DNA of 64,000 nucleotides from contig CM059431.1 of assembly GCA_030390025.1 (NCBI GenBank), forward strand, positions 104,472,001 through 104,536,000, in the 5' to 3' direction. The stretch comes from Squalus acanthias (taxonomy: Eukaryota). This document shows positions 19,603 to 57,595 of this stretch, piece by piece. A model generated the notes under the pieces. That model ran no database searches, had not been told where the DNA came from, and was given only the letters and a program-made list of their open reading frames with translations. The stretch's first letter is position 1, and each line of letters opens with the position of its first letter. Made by a program: the position numbers and the translations under genes.

Positions 19603-19953
19603 ACAAAAGCAAAAATATGGCGGATGCTGGAAATCTGAAATAATAACAGAAAACGCTGGAAACACTCAACAGGTCAGGCAGCATCCGTGGAGAGAGAAAC
19701 ATGGAGTTAACGTTTCGTCAGAACTGGAAAAAGTTAGAGATATAACAGGTTTTTAAGCTAGTGCAGAGGCAGGGGAAGGGGGGAGGGGCGGAAAGAACAA
19801 AATCAAAGGTCTGTGATAGGGTGGAAGGCAGGAGAGATTAAAAGACAAAAGTGATGATGTTGCAAAGCAAAAGGAGATGGTAATGGGACAAGTAAAGGAA
19901 TAAAAGATGGGTCTAGAAGAGGTGTAAATGGGAATAGTAGAATCATCAACAGC
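19603..19953 (-). mobile_element. Penelope-like element 3' end with stem-II-deleted hammerhead
   Basis: Same terminal sequence as the copies at 38912, 41421 and 57214. The minus strand reads AGTT-CTGACGAAACGTT-AACT at 19705-19725 and continues about 230 bp upstream in the element. Confidence 0.75.
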
Positions 19954-19954
19954 T

Positions 19955-20120
19955 GTTTAAGGGGAAGCTAGATAAACACATGAGGGAGAAAGGAAGAGAA
20001 GGAGATGTTGACAGGGTGAGATGAAGTCGGGGTGGGAGGAGGCTGGTGTGGAGCATAAACACCGACACGGATCTGGTGGGCCGAATGGTCAGTTTCTGTG
20101 CTGTAGATTCTATGTAATTC
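19955..20120 (+). mobile_element. CR1 3' terminal fragment
   Basis: TTTAAGGGGAAGCTAGATAAACACATGAGG... 3' UTR ending ATTCTATGTAAT. Confidence 0.82.
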
Positions 20121-37112: not shown

Positions 37113-37275
37113 AAAATGAGAAGTCGCACAACACCAGGTTATAGTCCAATAGATTTATTTAAAATTACTAATTTTAAATTAGTAATTTTAAATAAATCTG
37201 TTGGACTATAACCTGGTGTTGTGCGACTTCTCATTTTTGTCCACCCTAGTCCAACGCCGGCATCTCCGCATCATG
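37113..37275 (+). mobile_element. Fold-back Penelope-like insertion (second family)
   Basis: 63-bp inverted arms with one mismatch and a 1-nt spacer, followed by a 37-nt unpaired tail. 12-bp TSD ACCCTAAGAATA (37101-12, 37276-87). Confidence 0.72.
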
Positions 37276-38300: not shown

Positions 38301-38911
38301 AGAAATGACAGCCAATTGAAAGTGTTAGGAGCTACCTGCAATTTGGGGAAATTGCATGAATCTTTGATTAGAGATTGGATCACCCGTGGAATCAGAGACT
38401 CGCAGTTGAGGGTGAGACTCCTTAGGAAGGCAGAATCAGGCTTAGTAATATATTTGCATGCGTGAGGAGCTTCCTAAAGAATGCACCAGAGCCATAAAGA
38501 ACTGAGTCACAGTCACATTCAAGGCATAAGGTGAGAATGCAGCCTAAGTATACCGTAAAATTCTATGATTTTATATGTCAGTATTGCAGCAGTAGTCATC
38601 AGTACAGTGGTGTAAGTGCCGTGGACAGGGCAAAATGGGAAAGGAAAAACATCTTGCACGGTGGCAGTTGTGTAGGAAATCCAGTCAATGGATCGTTTTA
38701 CCTCAGTATTATTGCAAGAAGCAGAAGTGGGTGAAATTTCATACCATCGCTGATATGGTCAAGTGAGCAAGTTCTGGAGATCGTTAGCCCTGTAGCCAGA
38801 AAGAGGAATGTAGCCCCAAACCAGATTTATGCTGCTATCTATATGAGCAACAAAACAGTTACATTTTTCAGACTGTAATGCAATATGGTCACAACCAAGC
38901 TTTGATAATGT

Positions 38912-39098
38912 GAAATAACAACAGAAAAGGCTGGAAAAACTCAGCAGGCCAGGCAGCATCCGTGGAGAGAGAAACAGAGTTAACGTTTCAGGTCGAAGAC
39001 CTTTCGTCAGAACTCTGATGCTGCCTGGCCTGCTGAGTTTTTCCAGCCTTTTCTGTTGTTATTTCGGATTTCCAGCATCCGCAGTATTTGCTATCGTA
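38912..39098 (+). mobile_element. Fold-back Penelope-like insertion with hammerhead
   Basis: Perfect 49-bp inverted arms (38912-60, 39017-65) and a 3' tail to 39098. 13-bp TSD TTTGATAATGTGA (38901-13, 39099-111). Confidence 0.8.
38975..39017 (-). ncRNA. Minimal type I hammerhead ribozyme
   Basis: Minus strand: CAGAGUU-CUGACGA-A-AGGUC-UUC-GACCU-GAAA-CG-UU-AACUCUG. Both conserved core boxes, stem I, stem II and a loopless palindromic stem III (AACGUU). Confidence 0.8.
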
Positions 39099-39246
39099 TT
39101 TGATAATGTGATGTAAGGTCACCCCAAGGTTTATGAGATGTTGAAAAGTGAATTTGGTGAACACAAAGAATGGCAAGAAATAGGTAGGAACACAGGAAAG
39201 TAACAGACTGAAATATCCATCTAACCAGACTAACACTAGTGTCTCT

Positions 39247-39720
39247 CAATCCTGGCATGAGAGGGTTGTCCTATGTGGAGAGAATGAGTAGAATGGGCCT
39301 GTATTCCCTAGAGTTTAGAATAATGAGTGGTGATCTCATTGAAACATATAAGATTCTGAGGGAGATTGACAGGGTAGATGCTGAGAGATTGTTTCCCCTG
39401 GCTGGAGAGTCTAGATCCAGGGGTCACAGTCTCAGGATAAGGGGTCGGCCATTTATGACTGAGATAAGAAGAAATTTCTTCACTCAGAGGGTGGTGAATC
39501 TTTGGAATTCTCTACCTCTGAGGGCTGTGGAGGCTCAGTCATTGAGTATATTCAAGACAGAGATCGATAGATTTTTGGACACTAGGGGAATCAAGGGATA
39601 TGGGGATAGTGCAGGAAAGTGGAGCTGTGGTGGAAGATTAGCCATGATCTTATTGAATGGCAGAGCAGGCTCGAGGGGCCGTATGGCCGACTCCTGCTCC
39701 TAATTCTTATGTTCTTATGT
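39247..39720 (+). mobile_element. CR1 LINE 3' fragment
   Basis: PGMRGLSYVERMSRMGLYSLEFR...RRNFFTQRVVNLWNSLP peptide. (TTCTTATG)n tail. Confidence 0.92.
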
Positions 39721-39814
39721 TCAATCACTCGCTCCCTCAGTCCATTTCACACAGTAATCATCCTCTGCATAAAATAGTTCAATATAAACTGTCTGTGCAA
39801 TTTTCTTCTTCTAA

Positions 39815-40275
39815 GAATTGAGAGGTTATACCTATCAGGAAAGATTGAAGAGGCTGGGGCTCTTTTCTCGAGAAAAGAGAAGGCTGAGGGGTGACCTTAT
39901 AGAGGTCTTTAAGATTATGAAAGGGTCTGATAGGGTAGACATAGAAAAGATGTTTCCACTTGTGGGGGAAACCAGAACCAGGGACCAGAAATATAAGATA
40001 GTCACTAATAAATCCAATAGGGAATTCAGGAGAAACTTCTTTACCCAGAGAGTGGTTAGAATGTGGAACTCGCTACCACAAGGACTAGCTGAGGCAACTA
40101 TTCATTTAAGGGGGCTGCTAGATAAACAGATGAGGGAGAAAGGAATAGAAGGTTATGCGGATAGGGTGAGATGAAGAAGGGTGGGAGGAGGTTTGTGTGG
40201 AGCACAAACACTGGCAGGGACCAGTTGGGCCGAATGAGCTGCTTCTGCGCTGCACATTCTATGTAACTCTATGTG
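39815..40275 (+). mobile_element. CR1 LINE 3' fragment
   Basis: RGYTYQERLKRLGLFSREKRRLRGDLIEVFKIMKG peptide and 3' UTR. Confidence 0.92.
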
Positions 40276-40575
40276 AAACTCGAAACTATGTCCCGTAGTT
40301 CTCGAGTCTCTGCTTCAACCCATCTACAGCTGAAAATCTCATCCATGTCTTTGTCACCTCCAGACTCGACTATTCCAATGCTCTCCTAGCCAGCCTCCCA
40401 TTCTCCAAGCTCTATCAATGTCAGTTTACCCCAATAGGTAGCGCTGGTAGCACTGGGAGCCCACCCTCGTCAGTATGAGTGCAACTTTTAGCGGGTGGAA
40501 GCGCTGCCCCAGTGCACTCTGGTGTGAATTCTACTCATTTCAAAAATCTAACCCAGAGCCTCTGACTTCCCTTTA

Positions 40576-41297
40576 AAGAAAGAACTTCCATTTATATAAC
40601 GCCTTTCATGACTTCAGGACGTCCCAAACTGCTTTACAGCCAATGAAGTACTTTTTGAAGTGTAGTCACTGTTGTAATGTAGGAAATGCAGCAGCCAATT
40701 TGCGCACAGCAAGCTCCCACAAACAACAACGTGATAATGGCCAGATCATCTGTTTAGTACTCTGTTTTTGTTATGTTGGTTGAGGGATAAATATTGGCCA
40801 GGACACCGGGGATAACTCCCCTGCTCTTCTTTGAAATAGTGACATGGGATCTTTTACCTGCGAGGGCAGATGAGGCCTCAGTTTAGAAATTTTTATGAGG
40901 ACTCTAACATGGGCAATAGCTGAAAGTACAATTCTTTACTGTGGCAAAGGATGTCAGCTGTAGGGCAAGCCTGTGGATTGCAGAAAGTGCACCAGTCTGC
41001 GAAGAAAGGTAGAGAGCTCGAAGCAAGAGACAGTTAGGGAACAGAACTATATAGCTCTTATCAGGTGTGAGAAAGGCAGAGACATGGAAACAAGTCTTTG
41101 ATATCTATAATCATTGCTGAGTATGTCAGACCTTAAAAATATCTGAAAGACGGAACCATCCAACAGCGTAGCACTCCCTCGGTACTGCACTTGGAGTGTC
41201 AGCCTAGATTTTGTACCCAAGTCTCATGAGTGGGACTTGAACCCACGACCTTCTTGACACAGAGCAGGAGTGCTACCCACTGCGCCAAGATTGACAC
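40576..41297 (-). mobile_element. SacSINE1-type SINE interrupted by a templated insertion
   Basis: The SINE core breaks at GCCTCAGTTTA (about 40885) and resumes ATCTGAAAGACGG (about 41141). Confidence 0.87.
40890..41142 (+). repeat. 253-bp direct duplicate of 42405-42657
   Basis: Ungapped match. I count 4 substitutions. Confidence 0.95.
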
Positions 41298-41420
41298 ACT
41301 GATATAAAGAACCCGTAAGGTAAAATAATCTAACTCTAACTCATTCTTATCTTAAATACATCATACAATAAGGAGTTATTTTAACCTTTTGCATATAGAT
41401 AAACGGCATCATTCCATACA

Positions 41421-41600
41421 ATAGCAAAATACTACGGATGCTGGAAATCTGAAATAACAACAGAAAATGCTGGTAACACTCAGCAGGTCAGGCAGCATCC
41501 GTGGAGAGAGAAAAACAGAAGTTCTGACGAAGGGTCATTGACCTGAAACGTTAACTGTGCTGCCTGACCTGCTGAGTGTTTCCAGCATTTTCTGTTGTTG
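41421..41600 (-). mobile_element. Fold-back Penelope-like insertion with hammerhead
   Basis: 42-bp inverted arms (41456-97, 41558-99, one mismatch). The 3' tail is at the left. Possible CATCATT duplication in the flanks. Confidence 0.78.
41520..41556 (+). ncRNA. Minimal type I hammerhead ribozyme
   Basis: AGUU-CUGACGA-A-GGGUC-AUU-GACCU-GAAA-CG-UU-AACU. Predicted cleavage after GUU at 41552. Confidence 0.8.
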
Positions 41601-41619
41601 TTGCAAGACATCATTGCTG

Positions 41620-42400
41620 AGTTTGCATTTGGCATAATGGGTGGAGTTGTGGGGACCATATTTCCAAAAGGACTTTAATCTGTTGGAAAAAGTTCAGGGA
41701 AAAGTGACAAGATGATTCAGGAAGATTCAAAGTTCTGAACATGTTCCTGAGGGGGGAAAAAAATGAGAGGATCTGTGAACTATACATTTAAAATGCTGAC
41801 AAGAGTGGATATAGAGATGAATGTAGGTTATTTAACTTGAAGTACAAATTTAGAGTTTGAATATTGAAATTCAATATCAACAAAACACAAACAAAACATC
41901 AAATTAGAAGACTTTCCCATTCTTCTCAGAGTAGTGGAGCTGTGAAATAGGCTCCCAACTAAGCCAGTTGAAAAGACCGAGGTGAATACCTGCTTTGCAT
42001 TAAGATTGCGGGTCACAGGATAGATACAGATAATTGAGTGCTATATGGGGCATGAAATAAAAATAGAAAATACTGGAAATACACAGCAGGTCCGTCTGCA
42101 TCAGTGTCTTCTCTTTATAGATGTTGATTCACCTGCTGTGTATTTACAGCATATTCTGTTTTTATTTCAGATTTCCTGCATTCGCAGTTTCTCCTTTTAT
42201 CGTTTTCCTGTATGAAATATGTTGGTTACTGAACTGCATGGGATCACGGGGTAACTCAACAAGGATGTAAAAATGTAAGATATAAGAGTTCAGTTTGATT
42301 TATGGTTGGGAAATCAGATGGTCAATGGGATTGTCCATGGGTTGGGGCAGAATAAAGCCCAATGGACTGAATGGGCTTTGCGATTTGAATGATCGCTCAT
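41620..42400 (+). mobile_element. Old, heavily degraded CR1 3' fragment
   Basis: Remnants such as PYFQKDFNLLEKVQGKVTR and SQRVVELxNRLP. CR1-like terminal GGACTGAATGGGC. Confidence 0.5.
42053..42211 (+). mobile_element. Older fold-back Penelope-like insertion, no hammerhead left
   Basis: Imperfect inverted arms homologous to the 38912 element. Duplicated ATGAAATA at 42052-59 and 42212-19. Confidence 0.65.
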
Positions 42401-42404
42401 GACT

Positions 42405-42657
42405 TTTTTATGAGGACTCTAACATGGGCAATAGCTGAAAGTACAATTCTTTACTGTGGCAAAGGATGTCAGCTGTAGAGCAAGCCTGTGGATTGCAGAA
42501 AGTGCACCGGTCTGCGAAGAAAGGTAGAGAGCTCGAAGCAACAGACAGTTAGGGAACAGGACTATATAGCTCTTATCAGGTGTGAGAAAGGCAGAGACAT
42601 GGAAACAAGTCTTTGATATCTATAATCATTGCTGAGTATGTCAGACCTTAAAAATAT
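42405..42657 (+). repeat. Donor copy of the 253-bp duplicated segment
   Basis: Matches 40890-41142 and runs on into non-repeat sequence. Confidence 0.93.
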
Positions 42658-57213: not shown

Positions 57214-57341
57214 CAAAAGAAAAATACTGCGGATGCTGGAAATCTGAAATAAAAACAGAAAATGCTGGAAATACTCAGCAGGTCAGGCAGGATCTGAAGA
57301 GAGAGAAACAGAGTTAACGTTTCAGGTCGATGACCCTTCGT
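57214..57341 (-). mobile_element. Penelope-like 3' end truncated inside the hammerhead core
   Basis: Minus strand reads ..ACGA-A-GGGTC-ATC-GACCT-GAAA-CGTT-AACTCTG. Flanks are GTAAGTGT / GTAAGGGT. Confidence 0.75.
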
Positions 57342-57595
57342 AAGGGTTGTTGGTCAGTTGATTGTAGGGATTTTATGCTTGTATCAATATTGGTGTAACT
57401 TTGTATCCATGGTAAAATACAGAAAGTTCCCTAACTGTTTCCTCTGGATTGGAAAAGTTTGTATGGTTTGTAGGCTACGCACTAAAATTGTAGTTGAATG
57501 CAAACATGTTTTGATTCTCTTCAGTCTATTCTAATGTATTACTAGCTAAACTTAATAACAAACACCACAATACTCATGTGAGAAAGATTTCCATT

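Follow-up and report, generated by a model that had tools for sequence, protein, structure and literature searches.

Introduction

Head-to-head insertions of Penelope-like elements have been described before. In Adineta, the accessible parts of two reports describe inverted-pLTR insertions of Pen2a_Av as a head-to-head inverted 5′-truncated copy with a TSD around the whole (PMC3846280, PMC8557442), and in one of them the palindromic junctions were read as self-priming, a hypothesis of Arkhipova 2013 (PMC3846280). The general layout, an inverted truncated pLTR with one tail and a TSD, is thus already published (PMC3846280, PMC8557442 and PMC8969392, in their accessible text). The minimal hammerhead ribozymes (HHRs) of these elements have a short helix I and a palindromic loopless helix III and are predicted to be active only as dimers, and the accessible text of the same paper mentions pairs of them on opposite strands, 100–700 bp apart (PMC4209133). 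The accessible sections on PAc, a Poseidon element of Anolis carolinensis, report that it cuts and extends both strands in vitro, that two internal initiation sites define its tail, that it is a predicted dimer, that its HHR mutants insert normally, and that its cut site marks neither the start nor the end of any RNA-seq read (PMC11167929). Animal non-LTR retrozymes are short, non-coding, derived from Penelope-like elements and furnished with a type-I HHR, in the accessible part of the preprint that describes them (bioRxiv 10.64898/2026.07.22.740005).

Here we analyze two short insertions in a 64,000-nucleotide stretch of Squalus acanthias DNA (hereafter the window; assembly GCA_030390025.1, contig CM059431.1, positions 104,472,001–104,536,000), together with their relatives in the 3.7 Gb genome. 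They resemble the Adineta insertions in their 30–40 bp tail at one end only, whole-insert TSD and palindromic or overlapping junction, but their arms are only 80–140 bp long and their 5′ ends peak at −33/−32 (numbering below), and no such peak is described in the accessible text on Adineta. They resemble PAc in having an HHR at the pLTR–ORF junction, in two internal RT start sites spaced by roughly one tail length and, as proposed below, in the cutting and extension of both strands, but the PAc ORF starts in stem II and its RT starts 111–118 nt into the ORF, whereas the shark element has a CX4CXXC linker, an ATG at +23 and ends that lie some 45 and 80 nt inside the ORF; fold-backs are not modelled in the accessible sections of the PAc paper. 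Finally, retrozymes are described in the accessible preprint text as head-to-tail tandems amplified as units, whereas the shark inserts are head-to-head one-off insertions, each with its individual junction and TSD.

Results

Two fold-back insertions with a predicted hammerhead in one arm

Positions in the element are numbered from the predicted ribozyme cut, GAAACGTT^AACT (GTT^AACT), +1 being the first base 3′ of it, and in this numbering the HHR runs from A−33 (AGTT) to T+4. Element 1 (38901–39111) is flanked by a perfect 13-bp TSD, TTTGATAATGTGA, at 38901–38913 on its left and 39099–39111 on its right. Its tail-less arm (38914–39014, minus strand) extends from −33 to about +68 as defined by the motif scan and genomic copies, three of which are 100% identical to it, and most of the 30 best matches continue upstream of the arm into a common pyrimidine-rich region, in some copies for more than 1 kb. 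This arm carries a putative minimal type-I hammerhead (38978–39014, minus strand; found by motif scan, with the architecture given in the accessible text of PMC4209133) composed of stem I AGTT/AACT, CTGACGA, stem II AGGTC/GACCT, GAAA and a palindromic ACGT stem III, and cleavage is predicted between 38982 and 38981 on the minus strand. The tail-bearing arm (39017–39098, plus strand) extends from +22 to about +105 in an anchored alignment, the arms are 96% complementary across 54 nt, and the junction between them (39011–39017, plus strand) reads AACT-CT-G, where AACT can be assigned to either arm.

Element 2 (41417–41602) has a layout that mirrors element 1. Its tail-bearing arm (41417–41519, minus strand; anchored alignment) extends from +4 to about +107, and its tail-less arm (41520–41602, plus strand; motif scan and alignment) from −33 to about +69 with one G replacing +5 to +23, an 18-nt deletion in the HHR arm. 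The putative minimal hammerhead lies at 41520–41556 (plus strand; motif scan) with a predicted cut between 41552 and 41553 on the plus strand. The arms are 94% complementary across 48 nt, and the TSD is degenerate, CATCATT alone being common to both sides.

The initial annotation of this DNA, made without database searches, took both insertions to be fold-backs of Penelope-like origin, each with a minimal type-I hammerhead, and the arm complementarities and the core motifs and stems in both elements bear this out. It also had each tail-bearing arm begin at +1, and here anchored alignment to real copies gives other starts: the element 1 arm lacks +8 to +21, reads AACT-CT-GATG and starts at +22, and the AACT-TCTG junction of element 2 is a blunt join to +4, where a start at +1 would need an extra T. 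A pivot at +1 is ambiguous in any case, because AACT (+1 to +4) is also the reverse complement of AGTT (−33 to −30), the end of the other arm. The placement of the intact core only in the inverted, tail-less arm holds for both window elements (scan for CTGANGA..GAAAC) but is no rule in the family: at seven loci examined with an exact +1 junction, the HHR arm bears the tail five times and the +1 arm twice.

The motifs expected of a hammerhead core, CUGANGA, GAAA and UH with stems I and II and a palindromic stem III, can all be recognized in the sequence, and an Rfam scan of the window returned no HHR match and only sub-threshold hairpin matches. Differences among the seven commonest HHR haplotypes (92 of 165) are confined to N7, to a site beside A9, to loop II and to H17, a pattern in which the constancy of the core was forced by the search. 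The short helix I and loopless palindromic helix III are like those of the minimal hammerheads in the accessible text of PMC4209133, but the minimum free energy structure predicted for the monomer here is a different hairpin (101-nt arm, z = −0.14), and an unconstrained dimer is predicted to pair through loop II, which is not the catalytic form; neither prediction bears on activity.

The parent is an abundant EN+ Penelope-like element

A 35-mer from the element end has 50,562 exact matches in the genome, compared with 0 for a control. The pyrimidine-rich region into which copies continue upstream codes for a GIY-YIG endonuclease with a CX4CXXC linker, and an RT lies ahead of it. One copy (L366) displays the canonical partial tandem, in the order EN end, 3′UTR, HHR and a frame that begins with ATG at +23, stays open for 501 codons and contains a DKG motif (KPADKGG), and another (L227) holds a 510-aa frame with RT, a CX4CXXC linker and GIY-YIG. 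The Pfam matches of the latter (RVT_1, E = 1.8e-4; GIY-YIG, E = 1.9e-3) and the GIY-YIG match of a third copy (L019, E = 1.5e-4) are below the gathering cut-offs, but the motifs themselves can be seen. A CCHH zinc finger has its two Cys between GIY and YIG (LVYCIRCSRCGLLYIG) and is completed by downstream His residues; such a finger and the DKG motif are the defining features of EN+ Penelope-like elements in the accessible text of PMC8557442. The pLTR layout is also found here, with a partial tandem, an HHR in the pLTR, an optional tail and TSDs. The RT–EN linker, CKRRRCNTC, fits CX2-5CXXC, a pattern that excludes Penelope/Poseidon according to the same text (PMC8557442). Judged by these sequence features, the family is an EN+ Penelope-like element with a C-terminal GIY-YIG, of Neptune or Nematis type, the linker being common to both clades.

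The 5′ ends of copies peak at the front edge of the hammerhead

Three samples of 5′ ends were examined. For sample (a) the first 100 matches of the 35-mer were all fetched and aligned; these 100 arms are drawn from the initial 7.8 Mb of a single contig, with a few segmental duplicates among them. Fifty-one of them run past −99, 7 end at −38 to −62, 21 at −28 to −37, 14 at −13 to −27, 4 at −1 to −12 and 3 at +1 to +5, and none of the 100 has its 5′ end between −62 and −98. Sample (b) consists of 39 arms in 864 kb of sequence selected without regard to the element (the window, neighbouring stretches and evenly spaced stretches), 10 of which end at −28 to −37 and 3 at +1 to +5. When (a) and (b) were pooled without the arms of elements 1 and 2 (four arms, 139 to 135), 29 ended at −28 to −37 and 5 at +1 to +5, 2 of these exactly at +1. 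Sample (c) came from a pattern that picks truncated copies (289 matches, the first 100 read by eye); with 16 passenger copies and 13 long copies set aside, 32 of the remaining 71 rows end at −29 to −35 (10 at −32 and 7 at −33), 21 at −13 to −28, 6 at −42 to −44, 5 at −3 to −6 and 7 at +1 to +5, including 1–2 at +1. There is thus a small excess just after the cut (7/71 rows at +1 to +5 versus 5/71 at −1 to −12).

The 51 arms of sample (a) that pass −99 enter the 3′UTR, and many continue into the endonuclease and RT. The SINE-sized, separate class of element that had been suggested is therefore not seen; an independent SINE or retrozyme unit was considered and set aside, since about half of the anchored arms reach the coding element and the junctions are heterogeneous. 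The window elements are ordinary members of the family, 5′-truncated ends of an abundant autonomous Penelope-like element.

Numbers of ends in the whole genome were calculated as total matches multiplied by the truncated share among the first 100 listed matches, classified by eye. The −32 search gave 2,402 matches, 87–90 of the first 100 truncated, or about 2,100 ends, and the −33 search 1,933 matches, 83 of the first 100 truncated, or about 1,600 ends. A search built to enrich +1 ends gave 4,656 matches with only 2–3 such ends in the first 100, or 90–140 ends, an estimate that is based on those 2–3 rows and could reach about 400. By these estimates, which come from different anchors, +1 ends are about 15–20 times rarer than −32 ends, and the −32 and −33 classes are undercounted because their anchor holds a fixed CpG. 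The initial annotation had the ribozyme fix the shape of the insert, in one of two versions through its cut end, proposed a sharp breakpoint peak at +1 as its test and named an even spread as what would speak against it. Breakpoints are strongly uneven, but the peak is at −33/−32, which keeps the whole ribozyme, and a sharp peak at +1 is absent (2 of 135 arms, and 2–3 of 100 rows even in the enriching search); the cut-site model fails the test proposed for it. The 5′ ends cluster where the HHR begins, 32–33 bases ahead of the predicted cut, the cut is therefore unlikely to shape the copies, and it accounts at best for a small share of the template ends. No published breakpoint map of Penelope-like elements was found in the openly available main texts that our literature search covered.

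The −33/−32 boundary most likely marks the 5′ end of the element RNA, presumably its transcription start. A−33 and G−32 are the sole purines within a pyrimidine run, and the context CCAGTTC of A−33 is initiator-like, in line with the consensus YYANWYY, and follows a TTTAAA by some 30 nt. Immediately before the end, G is slightly over-represented (24 of 60 solo rows, p = 0.03; 24 G versus 10 C, p = 0.02), but the TSD-resolved −33/−32 copies show no unambiguous untemplated G, and any G present lies inside the TSD. We therefore treat a cap signature as a statistical hint, a cap-derived G having appeared as that excess and never as an untemplated base.

The −33/−32 boundary matches a 3′ splice acceptor perfectly as well (polypyrimidine-CAG|TT), and the accessible text on the Penelope of D. 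virilis describes an intron end that coincides with helix I (PMC4209133, PMC2377424). Element RNA may be spliced at this CAG|TT. As the source of the template ends a spliced RNA was rejected: of 11 −33 copies resolved by their TSDs, 10 have a TSD that adjoins or overlaps the end, and they share no upstream exon; also, no recurrent leader precedes the −32 ends in the first 100 of the 2,402 rows. Contigs of four putative-RNA runs from other organisms cover the element, although contigs of this kind do not reveal where transcripts start; among 15 of the 47 joints listed in them, none is a GT-AG joint that falls on the acceptor.

Two classes of 3′ end and one tail per fold-back

The 100 arms show a bimodal distribution of 3′ ends, with 55 at +62 to +73 and 33 at +96 to +109. 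In 106 fold-backs (a set that includes loci from the junction searches below and about 8 passenger copies) exactly one tail is present in 96, none in 10 and two in 0; outside this set, one locus with widely spaced arms (L007) has two tails. Paired arms differ in haplotype at 11 of 189 diagnostic sites, where permutation gives a mean of 107. In five pairs (L143, L184, L204, L286 and L322) the arms come from different subfamilies, so two templates are needed. Together these values point to two templates, mostly from one source. The shared haplotype of the arms fits a single cDNA folding back equally well.

Fold-back junctions

A fold-back pattern with 45–75 nt between its anchors matched 973 loci genome-wide versus 0 for the reversed control. 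When 45 of the first 50 were fetched and aligned, 23 junctions were found to overlap, 4 were blunt and 18 carried inserts, and tail arms and tail-less arms had similar broad ranges of 5′ ends. Because the 45–75 nt range excludes an exact −33/+1 join, this join was sought directly, again with the first 100 rows classified by eye. Among 294 matches with one arm to −33 and the partner from about −12 or later, 13 of the first 100 rows are exact stem-I +1 joins (TCAG-AACT-CT[G/C]TTT) and 26–31 are CTG joins at −10. With the partner holding −13 or further upstream there are 1,390 strand matches (5 double-counted pairs per 100 rows); the symmetric TCAG-AA-CTGA (CAG/CTG) pivot accounts for 26 of the first 100 rows, and AACT|CTGA, the second commonest, for 11. 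The exact +1/stem-I class thus has about 38 of about 1,600 loci, 2–3% of comparable fold-backs, fewer than either the −10 or the −29 microhomology class; the seven loci of this class that were examined all have different flanks. The suggestion in the initial annotation that two cDNAs anneal through stem I is supported in that such joins exist, but they are outnumbered by others: the stem-I join is one of several microhomology joins.

Discussion

We think it probable, though well short of assured, that the fold-backs are abortive Penelope-like insertions in which both cut strands prime copying and the short cDNAs are joined head to head. The GIY-YIG nuclease would make staggered cuts in both target strands, as the observed TSD suggests, and each 3′-OH would then prime inside the RNA, near +65 to +70 and near +100 to +106, a short way into the ORF, whose start is at +23. 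Priming on both strands, one at each site, is what the two observed 3′-end classes and the single tail lead us to infer. RT would run to −33/−32, the observed peak and presumed transcription start, or stop short of it. Two same-sense cDNA ends could pair only at self-complementary sequence, which the hammerhead stems would supply (candidates are AGTT/AACT, CAG/CTG, GGTC/GACC, AACGTT and GTTAAC), and repair would join them with the short overlaps or inserts that are observed at the junctions, by a pathway that we suppose. The ribozyme would thus shape the junctions passively, by its sequence and not by cutting. In L1 twin priming, too, both target strands prime and the inversion junction shows microhomology, but the L1 arms copy adjacent, non-overlapping RNA segments, whereas here both copy the same segment. 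A fuller version is offered more tentatively, and we regard it as possible but somewhat doubtful: a dimeric RT-endonuclease would prime both strands at two fixed sites on two capped RNAs that start at the first base of the HHR, the 100–140-nt strong-stop-like cDNAs would pair through the ribozyme stems, and the minor +1 class would record cleavage by a Penelope ribozyme in vivo for the first time.

Self-priming, in which one cDNA folds back on a 3′ palindrome and the second arm copies the first, would account directly for arms that agree at 178 of 189 diagnostic sites and have private variants in common, and for a commonest junction that is symmetric (TCAG-AA-CTGA, 26 of the first 100 rows). 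We nevertheless consider it unlikely, as five pairs have arms of different subfamilies, 18 of 45 junctions have inserted bases and the majority are asymmetric, and it leaves unexplained why the second arm should end at the solo-copy site, +65 to +70. The window elements could also have begun as symmetric palindromes pivoting at −33/−29, with one core deleted later when short direct repeats in the apex slipped against each other. Element 1 does have the second commonest pivot, AACT|CTGA, followed directly by TGCTG, the AACT|TCTG of element 2 involves a TCTG present at both −30 and +4, the other arm of element 2 has its 18-nt deletion, and stem-II-skipping deletions occur in ordinary long copies (L178). 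This history requires two events where one is enough, however, and heterogeneous junctions are already found in young, near-identical copies; it appears improbable. Hammerhead self-cleavage that sets the template 5′ end at +1 and fixes the pivot of both window elements can draw on the exact +1 class (13 of the first 100 of 294 rows, about 38 loci), on the slight bump at +1 to +5 and on an HHR that looks maintained, the commonest haplotypes varying only at the places named above in a search that forced the core. Neither window element begins cleanly at +1 (+22 and +4), however, +1 ends are far rarer than −32 ends, the join of the +1 class falls on a 4-nt microhomology and is less frequent than the −10 and −29 joins, and PAc can insert in vitro without HHR cleavage (PMC11167929). 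As a general rule this explanation is largely refuted, and for the two window elements we find it very improbable.

How inverted one-tailed insertions of Penelope-like elements arise, and what their hammerhead does, are open questions in the field, as far as the accessible text of PMC8557442 and PMC11167929 shows. The shark family, with tens of thousands of insertions, has ends that give three testable predictions regarding them: one tail per fold-back, a template boundary at −33/−32, and pivots that are set by microhomology.

Other Copies and Repeats in the Window

A third fold-back of the same Penelope-like family as the fold-backs designated elements 1 and 2 lies at window positions 42053–42188, 450 bp from element 2; its arms are 78–82% complementary and are separated by a 17-nt spacer, it lacks the hammerhead, and it is older than elements 1 and 2. 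Element 2 and this third fold-back are bracketed by a direct repeat (40890–40985 and 42405–42500+) whose two copies, at least 96 nt long, 99% identical and 1,515 bp apart, are possibly a local duplication. Two solo copies are present on the minus strand, a long one with stem II deleted (19612–19955) and a stub that extends from about −29 (57218–57344; +1 is the first base after the predicted hammerhead cut).

The window also contains a near-perfect AT-rich palindrome at 37120–37230, with sub-threshold Rfam miRNA matches. A second hammerhead-bearing repeat, found upstream in genomic locus L006, has a tail that matches the arms of this palindrome, which is therefore probably a fold-back of a different Penelope family that pivots downstream of that family's ribozyme.

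Copies Elsewhere in the Genome

At five loci (L309, L320, L324, L325 and L112) a single fold-back with junction −15/+21 is embedded in a larger repeat. Its copies have flanks and mutations in common across loci, and it was multiplied as a passenger of the larger repeat; it makes up 16 of the 100 matches listed in the truncated-copy search and 24 of the 100 listed in the +1-end search, with about 1,100 copies. The TSD is still visible at both sides of the L112 copy.

A minor 5′-end cluster at −40 to −44, just beyond the U-tract upstream of the hammerhead, occurs both among the 100 anchored arms and in the truncated-copy search, where it comprises six of the 71 rows kept from the 100 matches listed; it may reflect RT release on the U-run. 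In three loci among the listed +1-end matches (G000:C1:35943710, 59049847 and 75061352), the element is bordered at about −4, within the AACGTT stem III palindrome, by one shared GC-rich sequence that is unrelated to it and is possibly another transposon that inserts into this palindrome.

In the subfamily at L356–L385, C replaces U at the cleavage position to give a GUC triplet, and identical copies are numerous; this subfamily is very young and is of use in activity assays.
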